Shown: positions 1,122 to 14,947 of the stretch, piece by piece
How positions within the stretch are numbered: the stretch's first letter is position 1
Layout: every line of letters starts with the position of its first letter
From: Siphonobacter curvatus
Lineage (GTDB): Bacteria > Bacteroidota > Bacteroidia > Cytophagales > Spirosomataceae
Direction of reading: 5' to 3'
NCBI RefSeq assembly: GCF_002943425.1
Contig: NZ_PTRA01000002.1
Coordinates: 100,090-124,089 of the forward strand
Length of the DNA stretch: 24,000 nt
Position numbers and translations under genes: made by a program
Notes under the pieces: generated by a model
Seen by the model: the letters and a program-made list of their open reading frames with translations, nothing else
Databases searched by the model: none
Told to the model about the DNA's origin: nothing

Positions 1122-1129
1122 ACCCTTGT

Positions 1130-1169
1130 AACCCGGATCCGCTGACAAAGTGGGTTCGGGTTCTTTTTT
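1130..1169 (+). terminator. Rho-independent terminator of the dehydrogenase gene
   Basis: A stem runs 1130-1141 / 1151-1162 (AACCCGGATCCG / TGGGTTCGGGTT; 12 pairs, 3 of them G-U) with a 9-nt loop. A T-run follows at 1164-1169, 9 nt after the stop codon. Confidence 0.7.
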
Positions 1170-1249
1170 ATGTATTCTTTCCTGCAGTTCTCTTCCCACC
1201 GAAAAATCGCCATTGATGGCCTGAGAAAGGCTTATTTCCTGGAATAAAA

Positions 1250-1325
1250 TCACAAAAAATAAGCCCTGAGATTTCGATACAATGCTTTAGTTCGAGGGAA
1301 CGGACGCATATCGAAATCTCAGGGC
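1250..1325 (-). terminator. Probable terminator of the alpha-glucuronidase gene (17-bp perfect inverted repeat)
   Basis: GCCCTGAGATTTCGATA (1263-1279) is the exact reverse complement of TATCGAAATCTCAGGGC (1309-1325), with a 29-nt loop. On the minus strand the stem is followed by TTATTTTTTG (complement of 1253-1262). It lies 66 nt downstream of the minus-strand stop at 1391. Confidence 0.55.
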
Positions 1326-1390
1326 ATTCAAAAGAGTGTAAAACGTTGAATTACGTACTTCATTGAACTGAGTTTCAACGAAGAAATTTA

Positions 1391-3499
1391 TTACCGTAAT
1401 AAATAAACGTTTACCGATTCTTTCACGTCTACTAAGGTACGTTTGGGTTTTTGAAATGGAGCCGGAATAGGACGTTGGGCGTATTCCTGTAGATAAAGTA
1501 CCCAGGCATCCCGCCACCAGATGGCCTCCTCATATTGCGTACGAAGTCGCCCTGCGACGTCGGCATGTAAGACAGGGTCAACGGCTGGTTTAACCTGAGC
1601 CCATTCCCGCTGCAACCATTGTACGGAATCAGCACCCGTATAGAAATGCGTACAAAGTTCATCCCAGAGGTTGCGACCCGAGGAGAGGGGTTTGTCCCAG
1701 GGAACGTGATGAAACCAGAGCAAGTAGGGGAGAGGACACGTTTCCGCATCTGCCCAGCCTTTTTGAACCTCGGGGTGATACTGGGAAAGTGCATTACTAC
1801 CCGTAGCGGTACGGTTAAAACCTAGTCCTATGGAATCTGCCCGGTGGTAATAAACGGCGGTCCAGTCCGGACGGGGGCTTTTGTTCTGCCAGGGCTCTGG
1901 AGCAAAGTGTACTCCTGCCCAGGGCCGGGAAAGGCCCATAGGTGCGTTGTAATTGACATAAATATCCCGCGAACGGAGCAGCATATGACGAATCCTGCGT
2001 ACCGCTTTGGGCTCACGCGTCAATGACATCCTAATCCACTCCTCAGCGATTTGTTCGGAAGTCAGGGAATGGTCCCAGGCCAGTCTTCCAAACGCATACC
2101 AGTTCGCCTGAGCCAGCGGGTGACCCGTCCAGTTGCGATCCGAACCCGTATTGGCTACGCCCGCCATCAGTGTTCGTTCATACCCGTGTAAGCTGCCGTC
2201 AATTACTTTGGCTACCGTCGAGCCTTTCCCCGAAACGTAGGTATCAGCATCGAGGCACTCTTTAAACAGGGGAGCTTCGTATACCAGATGTGTAGCAAAA
2301 CCCAAGTATTCCTGGGTAAGTTGAAACTCCATGCCCAGGGGCGTACGGGGCATCCGACCAAAGATGGGTGAAAAAGGTTCGCGGGGCTGAAAATCAATCG
2401 GACCGTTTTTTACCTGTACGATCACCTTGGAACCAAATTTTCCGTCAAAAGGCACAAACTCTTCGAAAGCAGCCTTGAAGCGATCAGCGTTGGGGTCGGC
2501 TTTGTACACGAAAGCTCGCCAGATGACCACACCGGGGTAGGTTTTCATGGCTTCGTCCAGCATGTTGGCTCCATCTGCGTGCGTACGATCATAATCCTGT
2601 GGACCAGGCTCGCCTTCTGAATTGGCTTTCACCAGAAAACCACCGAAATCTGGAATGGTCTGGTAAATTTCTTTCACCTTATTGAACCACCACTGGCGAA
2701 CTTGCGGATCTAGAGGGTCCGACGTCTTTAAACCACCGAGTATTTTTGGGGCTGCAAAGTTCACCGATAGATAGACCTTGATACCATAAGGTCGGAGTAC
2801 GTCGGCCAGAGCGGCTACCTTTTTCAGATATTCGCCCGTCAGCAGGCGAGGACTCGCATTGACATTATTAAGCACTGTTCCATTAATGCCTATGGAAGCA
2901 TTCGCCCGGGCGTAATCGCGGTACCGTGGACTGATGGTTTCGGGTAATTCATACCATTTCCACATCGATTCCCCCGCATAGCCCCGCTCGATGGTTGCGT
3001 TGGGATTGTCCCAGTGATTAAGCATCCGAAATTTTACTTTCGGACGGCTAACGACGGCCAGTGAATCCAGGGGCCGATTCATCTGTAACTGACGCAGCAG
3101 GGCGAAGACACCGTATAAGACACCCGCATCAGTTTGGCTGATAATCTGGAGGTTATCCTGCCGTTTGACAATACGGTAGCCTTCAGGGGTAAGATCCTTT
3201 ACATCCGCACCCATCGGCGTAACGCGTAACAGGATACCGCCAGTCCGGTTGCCAGAAGCCTTTACGGAGGGTATGGATTGTCCCAATAGTCCCTTCAAGC
3301 CCTGCCGTAACTCGTCCGTTGCCGTATTCAGGATGGGGGATGAACCTTCCGTTGCGATGAACTGCATGGATCGGGTGTAAGACGTCCGAAGGGAAGCGTT
3401 CGAAATTCGGTCGTATTTGAGCCAGAGTTGGTACCCGTCGTCGCCTTTAGCCAAAGGAGCCAGTAGCAGCAGGTACAAGAATAATAATCGCTTCATCAA
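1391..3499 (-). CDS. aguA: Alpha-glucuronidase, glycoside hydrolase family 67, secreted
   Basis: 702-aa ORF with an N-terminal signal peptide (MMKRLLFLYLLLLAPLAKG) followed by the GH67-typical start DDGYQLWLKYDRI. Length and overall sequence fit GH67 AguA. All overlapping ORFs are short antisense or out-of-frame. Confidence 0.9.
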   Translation of the reverse strand: MMKRLLFLYLLLLAPLAKGDDGYQLWLKYDRISNASLRTSYTRSMQFIATEGSSPILNTATDELRQGLKGLLGQSIPSVKASGNRTGGILLRVTPMGADVKDLTPEGYRIVKRQDNLQIISQTDAGVLYGVFALLRQLQMNRPLDSLAVVSRPKVKFRMLNHWDNPNATIERGYAGESMWKWYELPETISPRYRDYARANASIGINGTVLNNVNASPRLLTGEYLKKVAALADVLRPYGIKVYLSVNFAAPKILGGLKTSDPLDPQVRQWWFNKVKEIYQTIPDFGGFLVKANSEGEPGPQDYDRTHADGANMLDEAMKTYPGVVIWRAFVYKADPNADRFKAAFEEFVPFDGKFGSKVIVQVKNGPIDFQPREPFSPIFGRMPRTPLGMEFQLTQEYLGFATHLVYEAPLFKECLDADTYVSGKGSTVAKVIDGSLHGYERTLMAGVANTGSDRNWTGHPLAQANWYAFGRLAWDHSLTSEQIAEEWIRMSLTREPKAVRRIRHMLLRSRDIYVNYNAPMGLSRPWAGVHFAPEPWQNKSPRPDWTAVYYHRADSIGLGFNRTATGSNALSQYHPEVQKGWADAETCPLPYLLWFHHVPWDKPLSSGRNLWDELCTHFYTGADSVQWLQREWAQVKPAVDPVLHADVAGRLRTQYEEAIWWRDAWVLYLQEYAQRPIPAPFQKPKRTLVDVKESVNVYLLR

Positions 3500-3689
3500 A
3501 AGAACAGAGAGTTATACGTATGTTATACAAACGAATGAAGGCTTGAGAGCAATGGATTATCGCTTTGCAGAATAAACGTCAGTAACCAGGCGTATATCTG
3601 TTTTACCAGGTTTGGCAGTTCATCATTCGCAAAGCGACCCTGACACTCTATTACCTGTATCTATAGTAAGTCGGGGGATTACAACGGAG

Positions 3690-3710
3690 CGTAAATTTTA
3701 CGTGTAAAAA
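3690..3710. promoter_or_regulatory. Candidate operator: overlapping AT-rich palindromes upstream of aguA
   Basis: CGTAAATTTTACGTGTAAAAA contains TTTTAC (3696-3701), then gt, then GTAAAA (3704-3709). It also contains the near-palindrome CGTAAA/TTTTACG (3690-3702). It sits in the 290-bp gap between the NrtR-like gene and the aguA start. Confidence 0.3.
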
Positions 3711-3789
3711 TGACACTTATTTCGAAAAGCACAACGAACCACTCGTACTTTTTTTAAAAAAAATATACGAATAGTTAAAAATAGGAGCC

Positions 3790-4491
3790 TTAAACGCTTA
3801 GCTCCGGACTAGGAATAAAGTTTAGGAAAGCATTATGTGTAAGTTGATACTTATTGGAATTTACCTGGTACAGATAAGCTCCTCTGCGGGAATATCCCTT
3901 CTGTTTTTCATCTAATTTAGTTAATAGGCTGGTTGATAGTATTTTACGACTGAAGTTACGTTTATCAAATTCAGTATTATAGATCGCTTCGTATAGCTTT
4001 TGTAACTGAGGAATTGTAAATTTCTCGGGTAATAATTCAAAACCAATGGGGTGCTGAGCGGCCTTGTAGCGAAGCCGCTTAAGGGCTAAGTCTACCATGT
4101 CTCCATGGTCGAAGAGTAGGGGTGGTAGGTCGTAGATAGAAAACCAGCGAGCTTGAAACGTATCGGATAAGGTGGCCTCGTAATCATCAATTTTAATTAA
4201 AGAAAAGTAAGCAACGGACACCGTACGTGTGATAGGATCGCGATTGGGGTTACCAAAGGCATACAGTTGCTCCAGATATACATTTGTCAGGCCCGTCAGA
4301 TCAAAAAGAATACGGCTTGCGGCATCCTCCAGGCTTTCATTCGGTTGCAGCCATCCCCCCATCAATGACCAAGTTTCGGCCTCGATCCCTCGCTTAACGA
4401 GTAATACTTTTAGGCCTTCGCCATCAAAGCCGAAAATAATGGAATCTAAAGCCAGTAAATAAGGGTGCTGTTGTTGGTATTGATCTAACAT
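3790..4491 (-). CDS. NrtR-like transcriptional regulator (degenerate Nudix domain plus C-terminal winged helix)
   Basis: 233 aa. The Nudix-box region reads GWLQPNESLEDAASRILFDLTGL. The G-x5-E and terminal xGU positions are kept, but REUxEE is replaced by RILFDL, so the catalytic glutamates are lost. The C-terminal part (FTIPQLQKLYEAIYNTEFDKRNFSRKI) matches the DNA-binding tail of NrtR/AraR-type regulators, which are commonly found next to glycan-utilisation genes in Bacteroidota. Confidence 0.75.
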   Translation of the reverse strand: MLDQYQQQHPYLLALDSIIFGFDGEGLKVLLVKRGIEAETWSLMGGWLQPNESLEDAASRILFDLTGLTNVYLEQLYAFGNPNRDPITRTVSVAYFSLIKIDDYEATLSDTFQARWFSIYDLPPLLFDHGDMVDLALKRLRYKAAQHPIGFELLPEKFTIPQLQKLYEAIYNTEFDKRNFSRKILSTSLLTKLDEKQKGYSRRGAYLYQVNSNKYQLTHNAFLNFIPSPELSV

Positions 4492-4637
4492 GAACGCTCA
4501 CTCAGGAATGGACCACGCTTTAAAAATGTATTTTCTCCCAAGATAAAGCGAAAATGTTAACTTTTTGTTACAAGTTCAAGATAGACTTTCAAGCCGGGTT
4601 TATGGTTATACATTCCCCCGAATCATAGCAGTCCATT

Positions 4638-5690
4638 TTAGCCGGAAGGCTGCTCGATTATCAGAGGTGAACTGTCCTCTTGGTAATGTTCTAGGACTGC
4701 CCGAGCGTTCTTCATCATTCGATCCCTGAGCATGCGGGGCCGTAGTACCTTTATCTTCCCGCCAAAGCCAAGGAATTCCCGTTCCAGTTCAAAGTTGACA
4801 ATAACCCGGATGCGAAATACTGAACCCAATGAATCTTTGGAGAGCAACTCCTGCGACGCATGCAGGGGTTTCGTAACCACATAGGGGGCATTGGAGGCAG
4901 CAACCCAGAAAACCACTTCACAGTTTTTCTGACCAGGGGTCTTGGTTACGCCAATTACATCGGAATAAAAGGTTTGTAAATCCAGGATCTCGTTGGGGCG
5001 ATAGGCTTCATTCAAATCTTCCTGCAAGGCATGAATCCGATCTAAGGCTAACGTGAGAATAGGCTTACGCTTCTGATGCGATTGCCCGAGTATAAACCAG
5101 CGGTTGCGATACTCTTTTAACAGATACGGACTAAAACAGAACGTAGCCGACTGCCGGGCCCGGAAGGATTGGTACGTCATACAAAGCGTTGTTTTCGAAA
5201 CAATGGCCTTCCGAATGGTTTCGATGTAATTCAATCCCAGTAAATGCTCATTCTTTTCAAAATCCACTACTGGTAAACTGCTCGTTTGCTGGGTGTAAAT
5301 CTTGTCCTGCAGTTTACTAACCATTTCCCGCAAGTCCGCAAAGTGGTTCAGTCCTTTGAATTGTTGTAATAAACCCGCCACTTCCCCCAGGAGTTGCATA
5401 TCCTGAGCATTCAAAGGAATGTTGGTGATGCTGAAATGCTTATCGGCGTAGGTATAATACTTGCGGTCCACTACGATAATGGGAGCTTCATAGCCCAGTT
5501 TCGAACTTCGCATCATCTCCAGATCGGACTGAACGGTTCGACGGCTTACCCCCTTTTCAAGGCCCTGATACTCGTACAGGGCTTGTGAACAGGCTTCCAT
5601 CAAATCCTCCAGAGTCCACGTGCGGTATCGATTCTGCAGACATTGATCAATGGTTCGGTAGCGAATGAGGGCGTTGCGATTGAGCGGCAT
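4638..5690 (-). CDS. WYL domain-containing transcriptional regulator (N-terminal HTH)
   Basis: 350 aa. The N-terminus MPLNRNALIRYRTIDQCLQNRYRTWTLEDLMEAC...GVSRRTVQSDLEMMR is the HTH module typical of Bacteroidota WYL regulators. The central region (FSPYLLKEYRNRWFILG) fits the WYL core. It is transcribed divergently from the Ro60 gene. Confidence 0.8.
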   Translation of the reverse strand: MPLNRNALIRYRTIDQCLQNRYRTWTLEDLMEACSQALYEYQGLEKGVSRRTVQSDLEMMRSSKLGYEAPIIVVDRKYYTYADKHFSITNIPLNAQDMQLLGEVAGLLQQFKGLNHFADLREMVSKLQDKIYTQQTSSLPVVDFEKNEHLLGLNYIETIRKAIVSKTTLCMTYQSFRARQSATFCFSPYLLKEYRNRWFILGQSHQKRKPILTLALDRIHALQEDLNEAYRPNEILDLQTFYSDVIGVTKTPGQKNCEVVFWVAASNAPYVVTKPLHASQELLSKDSLGSVFRIRVIVNFELEREFLGFGGKIKVLRPRMLRDRMMKNARAVLEHYQEDSSPLIIEQPSG

Positions 5691-5723
5691 GAGAAAAAAA
5701 TTTCAGAAAATTAGAAATTATTT

Positions 5724-5752
5724 TCTACTACGCACAAAGACTGCGTAGTAGA
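5724..5752. promoter_or_regulatory. Perfect 11-bp inverted repeat in the divergent WYL/rsr promoter region (candidate operator or 5'-UTR hairpin)
   Basis: TCTACTACGCA (5724-5734), a 7-nt spacer CAAAGAC, then TGCGTAGTAGA (5742-5752), the exact reverse complement. It lies 34 nt from the WYL start and 40 nt upstream of the rsr ATG. Confidence 0.5.
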
Positions 5753-5791
5753 CTTAAACCTTTGTATCGTCAACGGAAAACAAAGACAGTT

Positions 5792-7354
5792 ATGAAATTC
5801 AATACAACGCCTCAACAAAGTCAGCCGATCCTGAACCATGAAGGAGCGAAAGCCTACCGCATGAATCCAGCTCTGGAGTTGTATTCAACCGTAGTAACCT
5901 GGTCTTTGAATGATACCTTTTACGAGCCCAATGATGAGCGACTCATCCGGATACGCAATCTGATTGCTCAGAATGATCCGGGTTTTGTAGCAAAACTGGC
6001 CATTTACGCCCGGCATGAGATGTATCTGCGTTCGGCTCCTCTGGTACTACTGGCAGAATTGGCCCGTATTCACTCCGGGGATGACCTCGTCGCCCGAATG
6101 ACGGAGCGGGTCATTGCCCGTGCCGATGAAATTACGGAGCTGCTGGCCTGCTATCAGGCTCTAAACGAACGAACCGGTTTGAAAAAACTCAATCGGTTAT
6201 CTAAGCAACTGCAAAAAGGGCTGGCTTCGGCATTTAACCAATTTGATGCGTATCAATTTGCTAAATACAATCGAAATACGGCTATCAAACTGCGGGATGC
6301 CTTGTTTTTAGTTCATCCCAAAGCTAAAAATCTAGCTCAACAGGAAATTTTCAATCAGATTGTAACCAACACATTACCTGTACCCTATACCTGGGAAACC
6401 GAATTGTCAGCGTTGGGGCAGCAAAAGTTTAAATTAGCCACAGAAAAAGAGGCTGCCTTTCAGCAAAAGTGGGAAGAACTGATCGATAGTAACAAACTGG
6501 GGTACATGGCTTTGCTGCGAAACCTGCGAAATGTGTTCGAAGCCGGGGTCTCGTATGCACATCTGAAAAAAGCCGTCAATACTTTAGCCTCGCCTGAACA
6601 GGTCGCCCGGTCGAAGCAGTTTCCCTTCCGCTATTTAGCCGCTTATCGTGAGTTACAGGGAACGGAAATGAAACGTCCTAAGCAGGAAGGCTGGATTGGA
6701 AAAGTTTTCAGTGGTCAAGGGTACGTAGGAGAGGTTTTGGACGGATTGGAAAAGGCCGTAGTTCAAAGTGCCCGTCGGATTCAGGGTTTCGATGAACATA
6801 CCCGCGTACTGTTAGCCTGCGACGTATCGGGCTCGATGCAGAAGCCTGTTTCACCGCAGTCCAGTATCTTACTTTACGATATTGGTTTGATGCTAGCTAT
6901 GCTGTTACAATCCCGTTGCAGGAATGTACAGGTTGGAATGTTCGGCGATAGCTGGAAGCGAATTCAGGTTCCTAAAAATCGAATCCTCGCCAATGTGCAT
7001 GAATTCTATAAACGAGAGGGAGAGGTAGGCTATGCTACTAATGGTTATCTAGTATTAAAAGAACTGATAGACCGCCGCCAGAAAATGGATAAAATCATGT
7101 TTTTCACGGATTTGCAGCTCTGGAACAGCGGCTCAGGGAGCGATCAGCTAAGTAAGCTGTGGGGGAAGTATAAACAGGAGATTCACCCTTCAGCCCGTCT
7201 GTATTTGTTTGACTTAAGTGGTTACGGCAAAACGCCCCTACAAGTCCTCCGGAATGATGTATACCTGATTGCGGGCTGGAGTGATAAAATCTTCGGGGTA
7301 CTGGAAGCCCTTGAAAAGGGTGAGTCAATTCTGGAAATGATTATGAATTATTGA
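5792..7354 (+). CDS. rsr: Ro60 ortholog (Rsr): TROVE domain plus C-terminal vWA domain
   Basis: The N-terminus NHEGAKAYRMNPALELYSTVVTWSLNDTFYEPNDERL...YARHEMYLRSAP is a TROVE signature. The C-terminal LLACDVSGSM is a vWA MIDAS DxSxS motif. The start is placed at ATG 5792 (MKFNTTPQQ) rather than the TTG at 5762 given by the ORF track. Confidence 0.9.
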   Translation: MKFNTTPQQSQPILNHEGAKAYRMNPALELYSTVVTWSLNDTFYEPNDERLIRIRNLIAQNDPGFVAKLAIYARHEMYLRSAPLVLLAELARIHSGDDLVARMTERVIARADEITELLACYQALNERTGLKKLNRLSKQLQKGLASAFNQFDAYQFAKYNRNTAIKLRDALFLVHPKAKNLAQQEIFNQIVTNTLPVPYTWETELSALGQQKFKLATEKEAAFQQKWEELIDSNKLGYMALLRNLRNVFEAGVSYAHLKKAVNTLASPEQVARSKQFPFRYLAAYRELQGTEMKRPKQEGWIGKVFSGQGYVGEVLDGLEKAVVQSARRIQGFDEHTRVLLACDVSGSMQKPVSPQSSILLYDIGLMLAMLLQSRCRNVQVGMFGDSWKRIQVPKNRILANVHEFYKREGEVGYATNGYLVLKELIDRRQKMDKIMFFTDLQLWNSGSGSDQLSKLWGKYKQEIHPSARLYLFDLSGYGKTPLQVLRNDVYLIAGWSDKIFGVLEALEKGESILEMIMNY

Positions 7355-7434
7355 TTTTAATAACGCTTAACGGTAAGGTTTTCACACCTAACTGTGCTTA
7401 GTACGGTACGGGCTAAGTTTTAGAAGCCCAGCCC

Positions 7435-7556
7435 AAAGGATGCCGTAGCATCGGGATACTTCGCAGCATGTAGGGGGGGGCATTATGACTTCGGTCAGGA
7501 TGGAGGTTCGAGTCCTCTTTGCGATACCCCGCTCCCGATTCGCCCGTCGCTCCTTT
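7435..7556 (+). ncRNA. Y-RNA-like module 1: tRNA-like cloverleaf with a UUCG-capped stub replacing the anticodon arm
   Basis: Leader box AAGGATGCCGTAG lies at 7436-7448. The T-arm is GGAGG-TTCGAGT-CCTCT (7502-7518). The stub is TGAC-TTCG-GTCA (7486-7497). The D-like arm is ATG-loop(TAGGGGGGGG)-CAT (7468-7483). An acceptor-like stem pairs 7461-7466 with 7519-7524. An outer stem pairs ATCGGGA (7450-7456) with TCCCGAT (7533-7539). A closing stem pairs AAAGGA (7435-7440) with TCCTTT (7551-7556). Confidence 0.7.
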
Positions 7557-7609
7557 CAATATCGTTATTGAACTTGAAATCCGTTCGTTACTTTTCTAAA
7601 TGCTTTTAT

Positions 7610-8368
7610 ATGAAAGATAGAATCGCTAGCCTTTTTATGGACAAAAGCGAAATTCCGCTTTTTTACATTGAAAGTGGGAGTCGGCTTTGGGGGATTGCCA
7701 GTCCCGATAGTGACTTTGATGTGCGAGGTTTTCACCTTCCGGCCAAAACAAATTACTTCGATTTTAAGAAACAGCGGGATGTATGGGAGGTAATGGATGG
7801 AGAACTGGATTTTGTATCATACGATCTGGATAAGATGTTTGGATTGTTACAAAAAAGTAACCCTACAGTTTTTGAGTGGGTGCGAGCCGATCTGATGTAT
7901 TGGAATGAACTACCTGATTGGGATACATTTCGTAGTGAAGTTAGCGAAAATATCAATTTTAAAGCTCTTTACTATCATTACCACTCGTTGGCTAAGAGTC
8001 ACTTTTACAAGCTGGAAAGCGATCAGAAGTTTACGTATAAAGTAGCGTTTTACTGCATGCGGGGTCTTCTGTCCGCGGAATTAGCCAGCCGGCAAGTAGT
8101 GCCAGAGCTTTTGATCGACGATCTCTTCAAGCAGTTTAATACTGAATCTGAGGTGATCAAACTTGCAAAGGCTAGTCTGGAAAGAAAAAGACAGCAAACG
8201 GAAAAAGAAGAAATAAAGGAAGAAGATAAACAAAAGATCATACAAGGCATTAAAGCTTATTTATATCGTTTTGAGAGCATTACGCCAGGAGGTAGTTCAA
8301 CTCAGGCAAAATTGGATAGAGTTCTAACGAATTATAGTGTTCAAATAAAATCCATGTTTTATGCCTGA
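7610..8368 (+). CDS. RlaP-type (YcgL-like, pol-beta superfamily) nucleotidyltransferase associated with RNA-repair loci
   Basis: The motif ESGSRLWGIASPDSDFDVRGFH matches the nucleotidyltransferase signature G-S-x9-13-D-x-D. The start is placed at ATG 7610 (MKDRIASLF), because the listed TTG at 7568 adds 14 poorly coding residues. The gene lies between tRNA-like RNA modules and downstream of rsr. Confidence 0.75.
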   Translation: MKDRIASLFMDKSEIPLFYIESGSRLWGIASPDSDFDVRGFHLPAKTNYFDFKKQRDVWEVMDGELDFVSYDLDKMFGLLQKSNPTVFEWVRADLMYWNELPDWDTFRSEVSENINFKALYYHYHSLAKSHFYKLESDQKFTYKVAFYCMRGLLSAELASRQVVPELLIDDLFKQFNTESEVIKLAKASLERKRQQTEKEEIKEEDKQKIIQGIKAYLYRFESITPGGSSTQAKLDRVLTNYSVQIKSMFYA

Positions 8369-8444
8369 ATGGATACCGGCTGGTATTAAAAATGCAGCTT
8401 TACAAAGCCGAAGGTGTTACTGACTTGGTAGCAAAAACTAGTTT

Positions 8445-8568
8445 TAAGGATGTCGTAGAAACGGGTTACTTCGTATGGAATCTACTGAGAGTGAGCCTAT
8501 TGACCAGGTCAGTAGGTAGGTTCGAATCCTCTGAAAGGTCACCCACCCGAATTGCTGGTTACTCCTGA
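8445..8568 (+). ncRNA. Y-RNA-like module 2 (degenerate paralog of module 1)
   Basis: Leader box AAGGATGTCGTAG lies at 8446-8458. CTTCG at 8469-8473 is at the same offset as in module 1. The T-arm-like element is GTAGG-TTCGAAT-CCTCT (8516-8532), with one U-C mismatch. A hairpin TGAC-CAG-GTCA lies at 8501-8511. The stem CGGGT (8462-8466) / ACCCG (8545-8549) covaries with the module 1 stem. AGGA (8447-8450) pairs with TCCT (8563-8566). Confidence 0.5.
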
Positions 8569-8598
8569 ATCATTACAACCCACCCGTTAACAAGAAAA

Positions 8599-8717
8599 GA
8601 AGGTGTCGTATCGCGGCGTTGCTTCGTGTCGCCGGTTCGAATCCGGCTCTGGTCAGCCAGGTAGCTCAGTAGGTAGAGCAGATTTTTGCCCCGAGCTTAT
8701 TACCCTTCTCCACCTTT
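8599..8717 (+). ncRNA. yrlA: YrlA-like Y RNA (module 3): circularly permuted tRNA mimic
   Basis: Leader box AAGGTGTCGTA lies at 8600-8610. The T-arm GCCGG-TTCGAAT-CCGGC (8631-8647) is perfect. It is followed by a closed acceptor-like hairpin TCTGG-TCAG-CCAGG (8648-8661), then TA, then a canonical D-arm GCTC-AGTAGGTA-GAGC (8664-8679). A stem pairs 8611-8618 with 8687-8694. A closing stem pairs AAGGTG (8600-8605) with CACCTT (8711-8716). Confidence 0.8.
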
Positions 8718-8838
8718 AAAGGTGCCGTAAAACAGTGATCCTTCGGTTAGAACATCCGTGCCGATGGGCCGGAAGGTCGCAGGTTCGAGCCCTGCCTTAT
8801 AGTTCAGTTAATAAAGCACTGTTTGCCTGTTGCCCTTT
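8718..8838 (+). ncRNA. Y-RNA-like module 4 (T-arm intact, D-arm decayed)
   Basis: Leader box AAGGTGCCGTA lies at 8719-8729. A variable-loop-like AGGTC (8774-8778) precedes a perfect T-arm GCAGG-TTCGAGC-CCTGC (8779-8795). The downstream TAGTTCAGTTAATAAAGCA (8800-8818) matches the module 3 D-arm segment at 14 of 19 positions, with the loop GG changed to AA. An 8-bp stem pairs AAACAGTG (8730-8737) with CACTGTTT (8817-8824). AAAGG (8718-8722) pairs with CCTTT (8834-8838), followed by a U-rich ATTATTTG. Confidence 0.55.
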
Positions 8839-9182
8839 ATTATTTGTGTAGCATTGGATTAATACGCTAATCTATACTTATTTTAAACGCTTAAACTTAT
8901 AATACAAAACTTGAATGACTTTAATATTTATAATCAACGAATTGTTAATTCTTCTCTAAGTATACATTAGGTAGTAATATGTAAGATTGTATTTAGTAAA
9001 TATCCTTATTAAATAGTTGCTTATCAAGTGGTGTGATTTGCAGTAAATTAAACGATTTAAACTTTAAATATTAATTAAGTAATAAAATAATTTAATCCAT
9101 AAGTATTATTTAATTTACTCAGGTATTAACCTCATATTTTGATAGAAGATTTTAAATAAAAAGTGTTTTCATTAATCATTTT

Positions 9183-9219
9183 AAAGAGTTGCCTGTTAGT
9201 TTACAGGCAACTCTTTTTT
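9183..9219 (+). terminator. Strong rho-independent terminator inside the AT-rich island
   Basis: AAAGAGTTGCCTGT (9183-9196) and ACAGGCAACTCTTT (9203-9216) form a 14-bp perfect stem with a 6-nt loop. The T-run spans 9214-9219. The better T-tract is on the plus strand. Confidence 0.75.
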
Positions 9220-9423
9220 AACTACACTTAATAAATGTAGTTAAGAATAATATTCCTCTAAAATAATTGACCTAACAAATGATCAAGATGCTTAAGTAAG
9301 GCTCAATGAGTAAGAAATGTACGATGTAGTAGCTAGCTCGATGCCCATAGCCTTCATCAAAATATGCTCAGAATTCATCTAATAACGTGATGTAGAATTG
9401 TGTTGTAGTAATTATTGATTTAT

Positions 9424-9445
9424 TTTGTAGTATTAATACTACAAA
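9424..9445. repeat. 22-bp perfect palindrome TTTGTAGTATTAATACTACAAA
   Basis: Read directly: 9424-9434 is the exact reverse complement of 9435-9445. It contains the TGTAGT motif on both strands. Confidence 0.9.
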
Positions 9446-9863
9446 TACATTTTGTACTTAAGAAGTAATGCTCATTTGATGATATTAAGCAATTAATATA
9501 TGTCATTAAATATCATAATTACTACTATAAAATGCGTAAGATATTTAGTATTTGTTTCAGTGTATCTTTTTTTTATAGTAAAGCTAGTTCTTATATACGT
9601 ATAAGTTTGTACAATAATTACTCAAGAAATTGTAGTTTTGTTAGTTTGAAAAAATATCAAAGTTTAACATTTAATAGTACTTAGCTATCTATTATGTGAT
9701 TAGCTGAGCTAAAATTTCCGAACTAGGTTTTGTCAGAATTCGAGGATCTGTTTTCGAATAATTGAATCAAAATGTATAGGAAATTACGATCCTTCCTATC
9801 AGCTGATACATGATTTAGCAATAATGGCAACTCTAGTTATCCTATTAGTCCTGATTAAATACC

Positions 9864-10592
9864 ATGAATTTATTGATTTTAGAAGATGAACGGAAAGCGG
9901 CGAATGAATTGAAACAATCTTTGGAAAACCTGAGGAGCGACCTTCACGTTTGTGCTATCCTGCCGTCCATTGAAGAAGCACGTACTTGGCTGTCCACTCA
10001 TGATGCACCAGATCTTATTTTTGCTGATATAATCTTATCCGACGGTAAAGTCTTCCATCTCTTTAAAGAGATAGAAGTAAAGTCTCCCGTAATCTTCTGC
10101 ACCGCTTACGATGAATTCGCTTTGGAAGCCTTTGAAGCGAATGGCATTGATTATTTACTAAAACCCATTGAAGAAGAAAAGCTACAGCGAAGTTTGGAAA
10201 AGGTAGAAAGGCTGAAAAATGTTTTTTCGCATCAGTCTTTTCTCGAAGACATGAGTCGCCCAAAGAATATATTCGTTCACTTTCGTGATAAGTTAATTCC
10301 TATCGAGCCTACGGCGATCAATTATATATATACACATAACCATGTCGCTTACATTCACACGGATTCCCAGCAGTATGAGATCCGTGAAACATTAGATGAA
10401 CTTGCTTTACTACTGCCTGAGCGTGATTTTTACCGGGCTAATCGACAATACATCATTCCACAGCGAAAAGTACAGCACGTAGAACGTAGTTTTACCCGAA
10501 AATTGACCGTAAAATTAACCGTACCTACTCCTCAACCCGTTGTAGTTAGTAAAGCCAGAGCATCTGAATTTTTACAATGGCTGAAAAACTAG
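9864..10592 (+). CDS. LytTR/AlgR-family response regulator (REC plus LytTR DNA-binding domain)
   Basis: 242 aa. The REC domain shows the acidic pocket LILEDE and the phospho-acceptor context LIFADIILSDG, followed by CTAYDEFALEAFEANGIDYLLKP. The C-terminal part (YRANRQYIIPQRKVQHVE) is typical of LytTR domains. No kinase gene is adjacent. Confidence 0.85.
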   Translation: MNLLILEDERKAANELKQSLENLRSDLHVCAILPSIEEARTWLSTHDAPDLIFADIILSDGKVFHLFKEIEVKSPVIFCTAYDEFALEAFEANGIDYLLKPIEEEKLQRSLEKVERLKNVFSHQSFLEDMSRPKNIFVHFRDKLIPIEPTAINYIYTHNHVAYIHTDSQQYEIRETLDELALLLPERDFYRANRQYIIPQRKVQHVERSFTRKLTVKLTVPTPQPVVVSKARASEFLQWLKN

Positions 10593-10617
10593 TTGTAATC
10601 AGAAAAATAATTTTCCA

Positions 10618-10643
10618 TGACTGTCCTCTTCAGTCGGTTTTTT
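10618..10643 (+). terminator. Possible terminator after the LytTR gene
   Basis: GACTG (10619-10623) and CAGTC (10631-10635) flank a 7-nt loop, followed by GGTTTTTT (10636-10643). The stem is short. Confidence 0.4.
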
Positions 10644-11114
10644 GCCCACTTCAGCATTTTATAGGCTAATATTATCAATTGCTTACTTAATTTCGTTAGA
10701 GAGAGCCGCTTATCAGAATCACACTTAAGCAGATTTTTTTAACAGTATTAACGATCAATTATCATGCCGCCTTTATGCTTTTCAAGCAATTTTCTGCTCC
10801 TTGCTACACATTGCCTATTTATATATCAGATACACCATCTGTTAGTAAAACAGTTTACGTTCATTTCTAATGTTGGCCTGCTAGAGATTTGAAATATACT
10901 TTCATTTCATACTCCGCATTCATCTAGCAATTTGTCGGGATAGTATCAATCTTAAAGATTGAGAGAATCTGTTTATGAACATGCTATATAGTATAGGAAC
11001 CGCTTACGCGAGGCAGAACCAACCGATTACTTTCCCACACCCAGGTCTTCGAAAACGGAGATTCTTGAGTCTTAATACTTTTCAATACCAAACTTTTTCG
11101 AGTCCAATTATTCT

Positions 11115-11768
11115 ATGAAAAATGTCCTCATTTGCGAAGATCACCCCGTCGTAGGTTTAGGAATCAAGTACTTATTAGAATCTAACTTTCCTAAATTGAA
11201 CGTTTACCTCTGTAGTGATTATGAGCAAGCCTTGCACTACTTTAGCACATTGCCCATTTATATGCTAGTACTAGATTTGAATGTGCCGGGGGGTAATTCA
11301 ATCAAAATGCTGGAAACTTTTCTTTACAAACAACAGCAAGCTCGCATACTGGTTTTTTCGGCCTATGATGAAAAAGTTTACGCTTTACCCTGTCTGAAAG
11401 CGGGTGCAAAAGGTTATATCTCCAAGCACGCTGCTCAAGAAGAGGTACTGCTGGCGGTTAAAACAGTATTTAATAATGAGAAATATTTAAGTCCTCAAAT
11501 GCGGCAGGTTAGTATTGACAAACTGCTCCATCAGGCCGAGGAAGTCCATAACAATCCTTTGGAAAATCTATCAGATCGCGAAAAGGAAGTTTTACACTAC
11601 CTGGTAAAGGGCTATGGCCCCGCTGATATTGGACGGCAGCTCAACCTACATATATCCACCATCAGCACGGTCAAAAATCGGGTTTTTAGTAAGTTAGGGG
11701 TCAACAGTATCGTCTCCTTACTCGAAACCATGCGAGTACTTCAAAGTACGCCTTCCGTAGCAGTATAG
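11115..11768 (+). CDS. NarL/FixJ-family response regulator (REC plus LuxR-type HTH)
   Basis: 217 aa. The REC domain carries CEDHPVV and MLVLDLNVPGG. The C-terminal LSDREKEVLHYLVKGYGPADIGRQLNLHISTISTVKNRVFSKLGV is a LuxR/GerE HTH. Confidence 0.9.
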   Translation: MKNVLICEDHPVVGLGIKYLLESNFPKLNVYLCSDYEQALHYFSTLPIYMLVLDLNVPGGNSIKMLETFLYKQQQARILVFSAYDEKVYALPCLKAGAKGYISKHAAQEEVLLAVKTVFNNEKYLSPQMRQVSIDKLLHQAEEVHNNPLENLSDREKEVLHYLVKGYGPADIGRQLNLHISTISTVKNRVFSKLGVNSIVSLLETMRVLQSTPSVAV

Positions 11769-11782
11769 ACTTTTTGTTTACG

Positions 11783-11833
11783 AAGCTTGACCAGCTACTC
11801 TGAAAACCTCAGAGTAGCTGGTCAAGCTTTTTA
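11783..11833 (+). terminator. 21-bp perfect stem-loop plus T-run between the response regulator and kinase genes (terminator or attenuator)
   Basis: AAGCTTGACCAGCTACTCTGA (11783-11803), loop AAACC, then TCAGAGTAGCTGGTCAAGCTT (11809-11829), followed by TTTTA. It sits 15 nt after the regulator stop and 10 nt before the kinase ATG. Confidence 0.65.
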
Positions 11834-11842
11834 CCTACTTTC

Positions 11843-14800
11843 ATGGTATCAAGAATACTTACAGTTTGGCTGATTAGCTGTGGCGTATTGGTAGGCTTAC
11901 CGGGTTATGCTCAAACCTTTCACATCGAACAGTATACAGACGATAATGGTCTGCCTCAAAACAGCGTAAAAAGCATTGCTCGGGATGCTGAAGGGTTTCT
12001 TTGGCTAACGACGGAAGCCGGGCTAGTACGATTTGACGGGAAACAATTTTACACGTCCCTTCATACGCATAGCCAACGTTTTAAGTCATTGTATCCAGAT
12101 CTTTCTGCCGAGGGGAAAAGTTTATATGCCATCAATGAAAAAAACGAGTTTATAAAAATTAAGAACGGTAAAACGTATCCCAAGCAGACCTACTATCAAC
12201 CCCATCTCAAACCCCAATTACCCTCTTTCCCGCTGAGCATTTCTACGGGATTACCGGATAATTATTTCATGTTAGACACTGTTCGCAAGTATCTGATTCC
12301 TATAAAGAATAGTAGTTTTTTTCTGTGTACACATACTACCCTGGATGCATATGTACAGGGCAAAAAAGCGTGTAGTTTCAAAAGGGAATTCAGCAATTTC
12401 AAGCACCTATTCCGGCTGGGTACTAGTTTATTCGAGTTTCGGCCTGATGGAAAGATGAAACGGGTTAGCGAAGAACAACCACGCCTTTTTCCGTTAACGG
12501 GAGATATTCTTCTTAATCCTTCGTATAAAACGTCAAAGCCTACTATACAACTCTACTGGAACAATGCAGCGGATCAGGCCTTCCTGTATTTGGAGGGTTG
12601 TCTGTACCAACTGAGCCAAACGACGGATGCTTTAAAAACCGAGCTAATTTTAAAAGACTTTGATTTCTCACAAGTCAACATTGCTAGTGTATATTATGAT
12701 TCAGTATATAAACGGGTTTTTTTGGGAAGCTTAAGTCAAGGGCTATACGTATGTACCCGAATGGATTTTCAAACCCTGTACCTGAAGGAAGGTGGTCAGA
12801 CGAATGTATTCTATGCCCAGTCTCGATTTCAGGATTCGAGTGTAGTAACGAATAAGGGGGTGGTCATGCGGCCCAATCACCAGCGAACCGTACGTAAGTA
12901 CTTGACCGCTCTTGCTCAAACTAAATTTGATCGGTATATGATGGCCCTCGATCGCCATCAGAATATCTGGACTACCAGCGAAAATAAACTTTATAAATTC
13001 AATGCAACTGGCGACCGTCTACTGCAGCAGTGGCAGCTTCCTGGGCACATTTCCTGTATCTATCAGGGTGATCAAGGACCCCTCTGGATTGGCGTTGATG
13101 GGCAGGGTATTTTCCAGGTAGATGAACAGCAGCAAGCTCCCCAGCTTTACCTCAAAATGCCTAAGGTACGCGTCTCCTACTTTCTATACGAAAATGCCGA
13201 TAAGTTATGGGTAGGGACCTACGCTGGACTTTTTAATATTCAAGGCTCTGCCCGCAAGGTGACTTGGGTACCAGCATTTGATCAGATATATATTCGAAGT
13301 TTACACACTTCCAAAATCGGTGAAGTATGGGTTAGCACTGCTGAAAATGGTATTTATCTGATTCAGGGAACAAAAGTGACACACCTACCCCTAGATCCGC
13401 ATCGTTATATGGCCCAGGCCCATTGCATGATGGAAGACCGTAAGGGCTATCTCTGGATTACTACTAATAAAGGCTTATTCCAGGCGGCTAAGGAGGACTT
13501 GCTTCGGTTTGCTGAAGGAAAAAGCGACGGAACTATTTATTACCATCATTATACCAAAGAGCACGGTTTTCGTATCAATGAATTCAACGGTGGCTGTGAA
13601 CCCTGTGGTTTACGCGTACAAGATCGGTATTTTTCCTTACCTACTTTAAATGGATTGGTGTGGTTTGAACCGGAAAAGATTAAGCCGGAACTACCGGAGC
13701 AGAAAGTACTCATTGATCGTATAAGCCTGGATGGAGCTACGCAATTTCTGTCTTCGGATACCCTTGTACTACCCCCCAATCATACACCCTTAACCATTTA
13801 CGTTACTACGCCATACTTTGGTAATGTCAATAACCTACGCCTGTCCTACGCGTTTACCGCCGATGATGAAAAAGCAAACAGTTGGAATGAGCTCAATAGC
13901 GTTAATCGAACCTTTCAACTTACGCACTTAAGTCCCGGTACGTACAAGCTATCCGTTCGGCTTACGAATGGTTTCGGAAACGATAATTACTCGGTTTGCC
14001 ACCTTACGGTAATCATTCAAAAGCCTTGGTATTTGCGTACGGCATTTTTGATAATCATTGGAGTCATCGCAATGTTATGCGTGTACGGAATGATTGAACT
14101 TCGATCTTCGTACTTAAAGAATAAAAACCGGAAGCTGGAAGCCGTCATTTCCGAACGAACGAGTGAACTCAAACAAATGCTCGCCCTCGTAGAAAACTCA
14201 CAGCAGGAATTGCTCTGGCGAAAATTCATTCAGGATCATATCATTGCGGCCATAAGTCATGATGTAAAAGCTCCCTTAAGGTACGTCGTCGACTTGAATC
14301 AGCTCGTCTATCAGCATTTTCAGAAAGAAGGAACTTCCCCTACAATGTTGGAAATGACTAAGGGAATCTATGATTCGACCTTTCGAATTCAACAATTGAT
14401 CAATAATTTACTGGAGTACGTAAAACCCCAAATGAAGCAGTCGGGAAGCGTATCCTTGCAACCGGTGAATCTTCACGAGCTGGTCACGAATAAAATTTCA
14501 TTCTTCCGGGATAGTGCCCGTAAAAATAGTACAACCGTGGTAAATCGTGTGGCGAATGCCTTGAGCGTGACCAGTAACCCCGAATTACTAGCCATCATTA
14601 TTCATAACTTATTAGATAACGCAATCCGCATTACTAAAAATGGCTACGTAACGATAAAAGCTCAGGAGATGGAGTCCGAAACTCATTTGTCCATTCGCGA
14701 TACGGGCCCTGGCATGCCTTTAACTTTAGTAAACTGGATCAATCAGCCCCAATCGCGTAGTTTAGAAGAGGCAAGTAAGGAACTACCGCCGCAATTGGGT

Positions 14801-14947
14801 CTGGGATTGATTATCCTTAAAGATTTAAGTCAGTTATTAAAAATCCGACTCACGGTGCTTTCCCAAGAAAGGGGAGGTACGGAGGTGCTACTCATCTTTC
14901 AAAACCAGATGCCGGAAGATTTTGAAGTAAACACTCATTTCAGTTAA
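11843..14947 (+). CDS. Sensor histidine kinase with periplasmic two-component-regulator propeller repeats and a Y_Y_Y domain
   Basis: 1034 aa with a signal peptide. It has repeated propeller-type segments (FLWLTTEAGL, LWIGVDGQGIF, LWVGTYAGLF, VWVSTAENGIY, LWITTNKGLF). It also has a TM helix (AFLIIIGVIAMLCVYGMI), H-box SHDVKAPL, N-box HNLLDNAIRIT, G1 IRDTGPGM and G2 GLGLII. There is no receiver or AraC domain. Confidence 0.9.
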   Translation: MVSRILTVWLISCGVLVGLPGYAQTFHIEQYTDDNGLPQNSVKSIARDAEGFLWLTTEAGLVRFDGKQFYTSLHTHSQRFKSLYPDLSAEGKSLYAINEKNEFIKIKNGKTYPKQTYYQPHLKPQLPSFPLSISTGLPDNYFMLDTVRKYLIPIKNSSFFLCTHTTLDAYVQGKKACSFKREFSNFKHLFRLGTSLFEFRPDGKMKRVSEEQPRLFPLTGDILLNPSYKTSKPTIQLYWNNAADQAFLYLEGCLYQLSQTTDALKTELILKDFDFSQVNIASVYYDSVYKRVFLGSLSQGLYVCTRMDFQTLYLKEGGQTNVFYAQSRFQDSSVVTNKGVVMRPNHQRTVRKYLTALAQTKFDRYMMALDRHQNIWTTSENKLYKFNATGDRLLQQWQLPGHISCIYQGDQGPLWIGVDGQGIFQVDEQQQAPQLYLKMPKVRVSYFLYENADKLWVGTYAGLFNIQGSARKVTWVPAFDQIYIRSLHTSKIGEVWVSTAENGIYLIQGTKVTHLPLDPHRYMAQAHCMMEDRKGYLWITTNKGLFQAAKEDLLRFAEGKSDGTIYYHHYTKEHGFRINEFNGGCEPCGLRVQDRYFSLPTLNGLVWFEPEKIKPELPEQKVLIDRISLDGATQFLSSDTLVLPPNHTPLTIYVTTPYFGNVNNLRLSYAFTADDEKANSWNELNSVNRTFQLTHLSPGTYKLSVRLTNGFGNDNYSVCHLTVIIQKPWYLRTAFLIIIGVIAMLCVYGMIELRSSYLKNKNRKLEAVISERTSELKQMLALVENSQQELLWRKFIQDHIIAAISHDVKAPLRYVVDLNQLVYQHFQKEGTSPTMLEMTKGIYDSTFRIQQLINNLLEYVKPQMKQSGSVSLQPVNLHELVTNKISFFRDSARKNSTTVVNRVANALSVTSNPELLAIIIHNLLDNAIRITKNGYVTIKAQEMESETHLSIRDTGPGMPLTLVNWINQPQSRSLEEASKELPPQLGLGLIILKDLSQLLKIRLTVLSQERGGTEVLLIFQNQMPEDFEVNTHFS

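Follow-up and report, generated by a model that had tools for sequence, protein, structure and literature searches.

A probable YrlA-type Y RNA with a permuted tRNA-like head in a Ro60 locus of Siphonobacter curvatus

What is encoded at positions 8597 to 8711 on the plus strand of the 24,000-nucleotide (nt) stretch of Siphonobacter curvatus DNA studied here (the whole of this stretch is referred to as the window), behind a gene for a Ro60 orthologue, rsr? An earlier note, made from the sequence alone, had read this place as a circularly permuted mimic of a tRNA, in which a T-arm, a closed acceptor hairpin and a D-arm follow one another and a stem leads to a Ro-binding helix, as in the YrlA class of bacterial Y RNAs. 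This identification stood up to our analysis, with YrlA as the best-matching Rfam family and a TROVE/Ro60 gene 1.2 kb upstream on the same strand. We are therefore confident that the 115 nt at 8597-8711 (+) correspond to a YrlA-type bacterial Y RNA, the head of which is tRNA-shaped and permuted and the ends of which form a presumed Ro60-docking stem. The class as such is already known, since more than 250 bacteria, spread over at least 10 phyla, have been reported to encode YrlA RNAs close to Ro60 (PMC4201824, 10.1101/312249), and the RNA described here is an ordinary YrlA member from a phylum that the standard database model misses. A literature search, covering sources other than the species tables of Chen et al. 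2014, returned no paper pairing YrlA with Bacteroidetes.

The module is composed of the following parts, given with the observations by which they were assigned:

8597-8711 (+): whole module, very probably a YrlA-type Y RNA (matched by Rfam RF02553 at 8597-8713 and by the two clade models R1 and R2 introduced below)
8598-8606 (+): P1 outer stem, 5' strand (AGAAGG, bulged U8604, GU), pairing with 8702-8709; presumed Rsr/Ro60-binding helix
8607-8610 (+): CGUA, unpaired; clade equivalent of the conserved CGAA of Y RNAs (column counts)
8611-8618 (+): P2 inner stem, 5' strand (UCGCGGCG), pairing with 8687-8694; extension equivalent to the anticodon stem
8619-8625 (+): junction UUGCUUC, counterpart of the clade-invariant (W)UACUUC(G) and of the YUAY of YrlA (column counts)
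8626-8630 (+): variable-loop equivalent GUGUC, with G8628 as G46 and C8630 as C48 (column counts, 15:48 covariation)
8631-8647 (+): T-arm, with GCCGG at 8631-8635, loop UUCGAAU at 8636-8642 and CCGGC at 8643-8647 (sequence, minimum free energy fold of the core, double changes)
8648-8661 (+): closed acceptor-like hairpin, with UCUGG at 8648-8652, loop UCAG at 8653-8656 and CCAGG at 8657-8661 (compensatory changes)
8662-8663 (+): UA linker, equivalent to tRNA U8 and A9 (clade alignment)
8664-8679 (+): D-arm, with GCUC at 8664-8667, loop AGUAGGUA at 8668-8675 and GAGC at 8676-8679; contains the A14, G15, G18, G19 and A21 equivalents
8680-8686 (+): A26 equivalent A8680, followed by the 3' junction GAUUUU (column counts)
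8687-8694 (+): P2 inner stem, 3' strand (UGCCCCGA; assigned as its 5' strand)
8695-8701 (+): internal loop separating P2 from P1, 3' side, GCUUAUU, fitting the clade pattern G.Y.U.UU (column counts)
8702-8709 (+): P1 outer stem, 3' strand (AC, CCUUCU; assigned as its 5' strand)

All head elements named by the earlier note, from the variable-loop-like GTGTC through the T-arm, the five-pair stem closed by UCAG and the UA at the tRNA 8/9 equivalents to the D-arm and the A26 equivalent, are present as it had described them; the outermost pair of the acceptor-like stem, U8648-G8661, is a wobble. The outer part of P1 is a perfect 6-bp helix (8598-8603 with 8704-8709), and the eight positions of P2 include the mismatch C8614-C8691 and the wobble G8618-U8687. 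A mechanically called open reading frame (ORF) of 38 amino acids with a GTG start overlaps the RNA at 8603-8719 (+); nothing points to coding, and the conservation pattern suggests paired RNA stems instead.

To map tertiary contacts, the sequence was read against the published description of the structure of Salmonella Typhimurium YrlA (PDB 6CU1; 10.1101/312249). Judged by this reading, the module has every residue that tRNA and S. Typhimurium YrlA use to build their elbow, the Levitt pair and the three base triples. The elbow would involve G8672/G8673 (G18/G19) with U8637/C8638 (55/56), as well as U8636-A8640 (54-58), the T loop UUCGAAU having the U54, U55, C56 and A58 equivalents. The candidate triples are U8662-A8668-A8675 (8-14-21), C8667-G8676-G8628 (13-22-46) and A8663-U8666-A8677 (9-12-23), and the Levitt pair is G8669:C8630. 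The linker UA at 8662-8663 is the counterpart of 65-UA-66, which is conserved in S. Typhimurium YrlA (10.1101/312249).

In Rfam searches ranked by E value, YrlA (RF02553) was the best family for 8597-8713, with the model aligned over its full length (1-114) at 44.6 bits (E = 1.5e-8). At the gathering threshold, Rfam returned no family in the window and only one tRNA in 15 related loci. We also built a clade covariance model from modules of Bacteroidota Ro loci (R1), which gave 105 bits on 8597-8711. To guard against circularity, this model was rebuilt without the window and without the sister genome (R2), and it still matched 8596-8711 at full length, with 97.8 bits (E = 2e-26). The only other matches of R1 and R2 in the window were three neighboring modules, with nothing else above 12 bits. 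The 24 kb contain the T-loop/hairpin/D-arm pattern a single time, and none of 100 shuffles contains it. We considered and rejected a genuine tRNA gene: ARAGORN called 0 genes in the 24-kb window, an anticodon arm is missing from the module, and in place of a 7-bp acceptor stem with free ends there is a closed hairpin of 5 bp. No Rfam match to the tRNA family RF00005 was found in 8200-9000 at E values up to 10.

Comparative evidence for the fold comes from 52 sampled Bacteroidota Ro loci (53 sources, including the window). For more than half of the 52 loci, a regular expression for the core of T-arm, hairpin and D-arm gave matches that lie downstream of Ro and on its strand; in these cores the middle hairpin varies in sequence and length and is always self-complementary. 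A naive partner search for the 5' flank gave wrong module ends, so the ends of 26 full modules were set by constraint folding instead, and these modules were aligned with MAFFT. RNAalifold recovered from this plain alignment P1 (7 pairs, bulged U, 2 pairs), P2 (8 pairs), the T-arm, the acceptor-like hairpin and the D-arm, with compensatory changes at 24 of 32 pairs. Paired cells amounted to 94.0%, compared with 35-48% when partners were slid by 1-3 columns, and the covariation score of 0.70 (0.08-0.15 in the slid controls) was reached by 0 of 500 shuffles. Given that the 26 modules had been selected by the regular expression, the D stem was selected for along with them; we therefore collected 150 modules with R1, in an alignment that is fitted to the model structure and so leans towards it. 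In this larger set, 95.2% of cells are paired and double changes occur at 31 of 32 pairs.

The earlier note held that an absence of compensatory changes in orthologous regions would speak against its reading, and the orthologues have them in the T stem, in the acceptor-like stem, in both outer stems and, in the larger set, in the D stem. Specifically, the T stem has double changes at all five pairs (98.9% of cells paired in the 150 modules), and all 6 modelled pairs of the acceptor-like hairpin show compensatory changes, its length and sequence differing in every genus. The D stem is invariant in the 26-module set and compensatory in the 150-module set, where one pair, for example, is UA in 91 modules, GC in 12 and CG in 9. 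The columns that would serve tertiary contacts are also conserved, with G at the G46 column in 116 of 150 modules, U in 129 and A in 108 at the linker, and A at the A26 column in 113, while the Levitt pair 15:48 covaries across the clade (G:C 76, A:U 26, other 9).

We refer to the outer stems and the single-stranded motifs between them as the foot. Compensatory double changes were found at 16 of the 17 P1/P2 pairs in the 150-module alignment and at 15 of 17 in the 26-sequence MAFFT alignment. For P1 they affect 8 of 9 pairs, and the bulged U is present in 147 of 150 modules; for P2, all 8 of 8 pairs change in a compensatory manner in relatives. The last P1 pair links the Y of GYCGUA with the R of the 3' UU-R-CC (C-G in 92 modules, U-A in 49). 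Within CGUA, the columns have C in 149, G in 148, U in 145 and A in 133 of 150 modules, and the clade consensus of G, bulged U, G, Y, C, G, U, A is kept at 89-99%. On a shorter evolutionary scale, the module is 98.3% identical (113/115) to its counterpart in the sister genome, Siphonobacter sp. BAB-5405, and of its two changes only one, located in the acceptor-like loop, falls within the head; the rlaP coding sequence next to it is 91.5% identical and the stretch 8369-8443 is 73% identical. What these sequence comparisons show directly, within the Y RNA reading, is the fold, how well it is conserved and that it is linked to rsr.

Several observations weigh against this reading. The Rfam score is below the curated gathering score of 69, so that the covariance-model scoring proposed in the earlier note bore out an end-to-end alignment and a low E value while missing the threshold. 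This shortfall is a property of the phylum and not of the locus, and it reflects the seed range of the model; the tested Bacteroidota YrlA-type RNAs obtain 34-50 bits on the Rfam YrlA model. The minimum free energy (MFE) fold likewise agrees in part: for the whole module (z score -1.0) it retains the outer stem along with the T-arm and the hairpin and mispairs the D-arm, whereas the core 8626-8680, folded alone, adopts precisely the three hairpins as its MFE structure (z score -2.07; 56% of the ensemble). In addition, the reverse strand has the lower folding z score (-2.9 versus -1.0). We discount this value because the G-U pairs U8648-G8661 and G8618-U8687 suit the plus strand only, with A-C mismatches in their place on the opposite one, and because, across the 53 sources, model matches are on the Ro strand and near Ro in 261 of 262 cases; moreover, it is uninformative, since the complement of any structured RNA also folds.

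Further points against it concern the stem and its motifs. The pairing of 8611-8618 with 8687-8694 that the earlier note had seen, including its one C-C mismatch, exists, but P2 is not the direct continuation of the core that an anticodon stem would be, because an internal loop (8619-8625 on the 5' side, 8681-8686 on the 3' side) stands between them. Only about 2 pairs are possible in the helix that adjoins the core at the place of the anticodon stem (with 8622-8625), either C8625-G8681 and U8624-A8682 or U8623-A8680 and C8622-G8681. Such a short helix with an internal loop is consistent with the kinked, variable anticodon-equivalent region of YrlA, for which a YUAY element and a kink have been described (PMC4201824, 10.1101/312249). 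At the place of YUAY, both the window and the sister genome have UUGC (8619-8622); the clade has UACUUCG at the top of P2, which in the window reads UUGCUUCG, with G where 86% of modules have A. Similarly, the CGAA or GNCGAA motif described for Y RNAs (PMC4201824, PMC12135203), in YrlA GNCGAAN0-1G on the 5' side, is represented by GUCGUA, and GUCGUAUC at 8605-8612 is not an exact match. Across the clade the motif is G-Y-C-G-U-A, with U for the first A in 145 of 150 modules, at the canonical position and in the canonical context after the bulged helix. Finally, rlaP is found with Ro in only 5 of 52 loci, and we rejected RlaP as a general effector.

The module does not stand alone. The earlier note had placed it in an array of such units, and we could retain the notion of a Y RNA array while refining it to four co-oriented modules, one of which lies upstream of rlaP, with 8369-8443 probably serving as a spacer. 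The array and its genetic neighborhood contain the following features:

4638-5690 (-): WYL/WCX-domain regulator, divergent (Pfam PF13280, PF25583)
5762-7354 (+): rsr, Ro60 orthologue with TROVE and Ro60 von Willebrand factor A (vWA) domains, presumed partner of the RNA (Pfam PF05731, 2.8e-29; PF25045, 2.6e-7)
7434-7558 (+): sister module between the rsr stop and the rlaP start (R1 31.7 bits, R2 31.3 bits; 95% identical to the sister genome, L001)
7568-8368 (+): rlaP, nucleotidyltransferase gene inside the Y RNA array (Pfam PF10127, 2.4e-43)
8444-8570 (+): sister module with a degenerate T-like loop, GGUUCGAAUCC, at 8519 (R1 31.3 bits, R2 31.5 bits; 91% identical to L001)
8716-8841 (+): sister module (R1 46.8 bits, R2 47.2 bits, Rfam YrlA 15 bits; 97% identical to L001)

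All four modules (7434-7558, 8444-8570, 8597-8711 and 8716-8841) share a foot of P1 with bulged U, CGUA, P2 and U(A/C)CUUCG, and all have a GGUUCGA-type loop. The D-arm and the acceptor-like hairpin are found in 8597-8711 only, making it the single YrlA-type member; the other three resemble the Y RNAs that Chen et al. describe as YrlB-type or as having a T-arm only (PMC4201824). In 7434-7558 the foot reads AAAGGA-U-GCCGUAG ... AUACUUCG ... GCUCCUUU, and the head consists of a UUCG-capped hairpin and a T-arm (GGAGG/UUCGAGU/CCUCU, 7501-7517) without a D-arm. In 8716-8841, the variable region is long, the T-arm at 8779-8795 is well formed, and one hairpin replaces both the acceptor-like stem and the D-arm. 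A 9-nt direct repeat, ACCCACCCG, is found at 8541-8549 and 8578-8586 (+), both copies being kept in the sister genome. The second copy would provide a perfect 7-bp P2 for 8444-8570 (8460-8466/8582-8588) but is located 3' of the 3' strand of P1, and the repeat may stem from a duplication or point to an alternative fold.

We rejected 8369-8443 as a further module, as it has no model match and shows the low identity to the sister genome given above; an exact match to GNCGAANG within it (GCCGAAGG, 8408-8415) is not conserved there. This stretch, directly after the rlaP stop, is probably a spacer. The three modules 3' of rlaP are separated by 4-26 nt, which leaves no room for separate promoters and makes a single precursor the likely route of production, as has been demonstrated for the Y RNAs of Mycobacterium smegmatis and Deinococcus radiodurans (PMC4201824).

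How general is this arrangement? Y-RNA-like modules were found on the Ro strand in 52 of 52 sampled Bacteroidota Ro loci, with about 250 full-length matches in total. A locus contains 1-9 modules, typically 4-5, with the highest numbers in L032 (9) and in L007, L017, L026 and L039 (8 each). The heads range from a full tRNA mimic over a T-arm only to a short hairpin, and about 110 of the best 150 modules have the full tRNA-like head, from which it follows that several YrlA paralogues per locus are common. The foot is near-invariant in its order of GG, bulged U, GYCGUA, P2, UACUUCG and UU-R-CC and replaces the canonical CGAA.

Some loci (L010, L017, L022, L031, L033, L034, L038, L039, L043 and L047) have 6-15 genuine tRNA genes beside or among the modules, on the Ro strand. 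In L033, for example, a tRNA-Pro gene (7043-7116) directly precedes a YrlA-type module (7117-7252), with tRNA-Gln at 7449; the window itself contains no tRNA genes. A different composite is found upstream of Ro at L050:2329-2463 (+), where a T-arm, a 7-bp hairpin, a D-arm, a T-arm, a hairpin, a D-arm and an anticodon-like arm (loop CUGUUAA) form a chain in which ARAGORN calls no tRNA. This chain may represent a tRNA-like RNA with two heads, or it may capture the proposed origin of YrlA from dimeric tRNAs in progress.

By the clade model, YrlA-type modules and small arrays also occur on predicted viral or proviral contigs from IMG/VR (L085, L124, L104, L110, L095, L122, L088, L090 and L111), with up to 8 model matches in L095. 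A scan of viral contigs for the foot motif gave 108 matches, mostly single and near chance expectation, and about 9 contigs were confirmed by the model. Tentatively, we put forward the possibility of a Bacteroidota-specific Y RNA system, apparently undescribed, with a near-invariant foot that Rfam does not pick up at its gathering score, arrays of 1-9 modules that in many genomes are interleaved with real tRNA genes, and differing heads, some of it on predicted viral contigs and with 8597-8711 as its tRNA-like member, in which Rsr might act as a hub for interchangeable RNA adaptors, possibly coupled to tRNA damage or replacement.

Could the tRNA-like head be explained without Ro? One explanation is a Ro-independent tRNA decoy, the head of which would soak up or inhibit a tRNA-targeting enzyme (anticodon nuclease, ribotoxin) or guide tRNA repair such as that by RlaP, with the stem contributing stability only. 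Hughes et al. indeed propose that YrlA's tRNA-like domain, uncleaved by anticodon nuclease, could be a competitive inhibitor (PMC7790460), and the module has no anticodon loop. Real tRNA gene arrays lie beside Ro in many related loci, and rlaP is located within the array, its product extending cleaved tRNA halves by adding 1-2 nucleotides to their 3' ends in vitro (PMC12776372). However, over about 250 modules it is the foot (GG-U-GYCGUA, UACUUCG, UU-R-CC) that is most conserved and not the head, the same foot is present in modules without a tRNA-like head, and the modules adjoin rsr on its strand, whereas rlaP accompanies so few of the loci. A decoy is also compatible with Ro binding and would thus be a refinement more than an alternative; as a separate account of the locus we regard it as unlikely.

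Two other explanations deny the RNA a function of its own. The head could be a tRNA-like processing signal, at which RNase P, RNase Z or a similar enzyme cuts the rsr-rlaP transcript and the neighboring RNAs. The tight packing of the modules, which excludes separate promoters, would suit this, as would the real tRNAs interleaved with modules in related loci and the cleavage of M. smegmatis YrlA by RNase P (PMC4201824). Chen et al., however, tie this cleavage to the 7-bp stem of the M. smegmatis RNA only (PMC4201824), and the five-pair, loop-closed stem of the module offers no junction between a 5' leader and an acceptor. A full tRNA-like head in just one of four modules, and a conserved foot with covarying P1 and P2, which punctuation does not need, also speak against this explanation, so that we consider it very improbable.

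Still harder to sustain is the idea that two neighboring tRNA genes have decayed here, leaving the T-arm of the first and the D-arm of the second as a nonfunctional remnant. The order of T-arm, spacer and D-arm is that of a tRNA-tRNA junction, true junctions are also matched by the regular expression and the model (for example, L017 3638-3719), and a model by Sim and Wolin, as cited in 10.1101/312249, derives YrlA from dimeric tRNA transcripts. Dimeric tRNAs may thus account for the origin of the YrlA family, though not for the present state of this locus: ARAGORN finds no flanking tRNA halves, the spacer is a covarying hairpin, the flanks are covarying P1 and P2 stems with invariant motifs, and the module is more conserved than the neighboring coding sequence. 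Covariation and conservation already contradict decay, and we give this explanation hardly any credence. None of the three explains a conserved, covarying foot that is shared with modules lacking a tRNA-like head, which leaves the YrlA-type Y RNA as our preferred reading.

Under the Y RNA reading, Rsr binding, base modifications and an effector would be expected for the 8597-8711 RNA by analogy with published systems (PMC4201824, 10.1101/312249, PMC7790460). The features expected of the class comprise binding and stabilization by Rsr, pseudouridine 55 (TruB) and dihydrouridine (DusA). By the same analogy, the RNA would be transcribed from the rsr-rlaP strand and cut from one long precursor together with its three sister modules; the foot of P1 and CGUA would dock on the outer surface of the ring of Rsr (Ro60) encoded upstream, and the tRNA-like head would recruit or occupy a factor that binds the tRNA elbow. 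The RNA might in this way serve Rsr as a tether, a gate or both during stress-related quality control or repair of RNA. As candidate effectors, PNPase has a precedent in other bacteria, while RlaP is a local candidate that is not generally linked to Ro loci. Neither opening by RNase P nor CCA addition is expected, because the acceptor-like stem is 5 bp long and closed.

The genetic neighborhood fits such a role. The module starts 1243 nt past the rsr stop, on the same strand and behind rlaP, within the distance of about 4 kb used for the class, and the encoded Ro protein (Rsr) is 96% identical to that of Siphonobacter sp. BAB-5405. The divergent WYL/WCX regulator is likely the transcription regulator of the rsr operon and would probably control the quality-control or repair response; of the 52 related loci, 24 have a homologue of it upstream of Ro and on the opposite strand. 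None of rtcB, rtcA and rtcR was found among the nine window ORFs scanned with Pfam (141-14947). The other neighbors in the window, namely GH67, GSDH, an NrtR-like regulator and a Reg_prop/Y_Y_Y sensor kinase, point to Bacteroidota.

Around the array, the 79 nt that lead from the rsr stop to the first module (7355-7433, +) are 96% conserved and include a terminator-like hairpin followed by UUUU (7392-7411 plus tail), which may act as an attenuator or as a site where processing separates rsr from the RNAs. On the 3' side, about 1 kb (8850-9860) contains no ORF of at least 80 amino acids and has a G+C content of only 21-33%; a strong terminator-like hairpin found there by eye at 9187-9219 (+), with AGUUGCCUGU, a 6-nt loop, ACAGGCAACU and CUUUUUU, was not listed by the scan tool. 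Scans of the locus for sigma-70 promoters and terminators gave results no better than shuffles, the sigma-70 model not being of the Bacteroidota type.

With this analysis, 115 unannotated bases become a named RNA with a predicted fold, a presumed partner (Rsr) and testable residues, namely U8604, CGUA at 8607-8610 and U8637, the expected pseudouridine. At its curated threshold the Rfam YrlA model misses a whole phylum, for which a clade-specific covariance model is now available. The variant Ro-binding motif, consisting of CGUA and a two-stranded bulged-U helix, can be used to ask which RNA features Ro60 reads, and arrays that combine YrlA paralogues and non-tRNA-like modules on an identical foot offer natural head-swap comparisons for the question of the YrlA effector. 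The CGUA variant of the foot and the phylum-wide size of the arrays are the parts that specialists might follow up.

Among known systems, YrlA of S. Typhimurium (RF02553; PDB 6CU1; PMC4201824, 10.1101/312249) is the closest likeness. Its parts come in the same order of 5' stem strand, variable loop, T-arm, closed hairpin, UA, D-arm and 3' strand, it has the same D stem (GCUC/GAGC, which is also the Rfam consensus) and the same T-loop/D-loop elbow, triple and Levitt residues, and both RNAs are located 3' of rsr on its strand and have a short, class I-like variable loop. They differ in the acceptor-like stem (5 pairs here versus 6) and in the Levitt pair (G:C here versus A:U), and the S. Typhimurium locus differs in its neighbors, with a WYL regulator and rlaP here in place of rtcB, rtcA and rtcR. 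Furthermore, both strands of the Ro-binding helix are conserved here, with a bulged U, whereas just the 5' strand can be recognized in Salmonella and Mycobacterium (PMC4201824).

YrlA of M. smegmatis likewise has a tRNA-like head, is bound by Rsr and is made from one precursor with a second Y RNA (PMC4201824). It is located upstream of rsr, in contrast to the downstream position of our module, and has a 7-bp acceptor stem, RNase P cleavage and CCA, which the closed 5-bp stem makes unlikely here. In its foot, the module resembles Yrn1 and Yrn2 of D. radiodurans and the metazoan Y RNAs, in which both strands of the terminal stem are conserved and the Ro-binding helix has a bulged nucleotide. D. 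radiodurans also has several Y RNAs side by side near rsr, which are polycistronic together with a tRNA, although Yrn1 has a T-arm without a clear D-arm and its parts are in another orientation than in 8597-8711. Metazoan Y RNAs lack a tRNA-like domain and, as cited in PMC4201824, have the motif GGUCCGA with a bulged C. Finally, the circularly permuted tRNA genes that occur in red algae and in some archaea (discussed in 10.1101/312249) also place the T-arm before the D-arm, initially close the acceptor stem with a loop and pair their ends at the place of the anticodon stem. They are, however, precursors of real tRNAs with an anticodon, whereas 8597-8711 has no anticodon arm and belongs to bacteria, which have no splicing endonuclease pathway.

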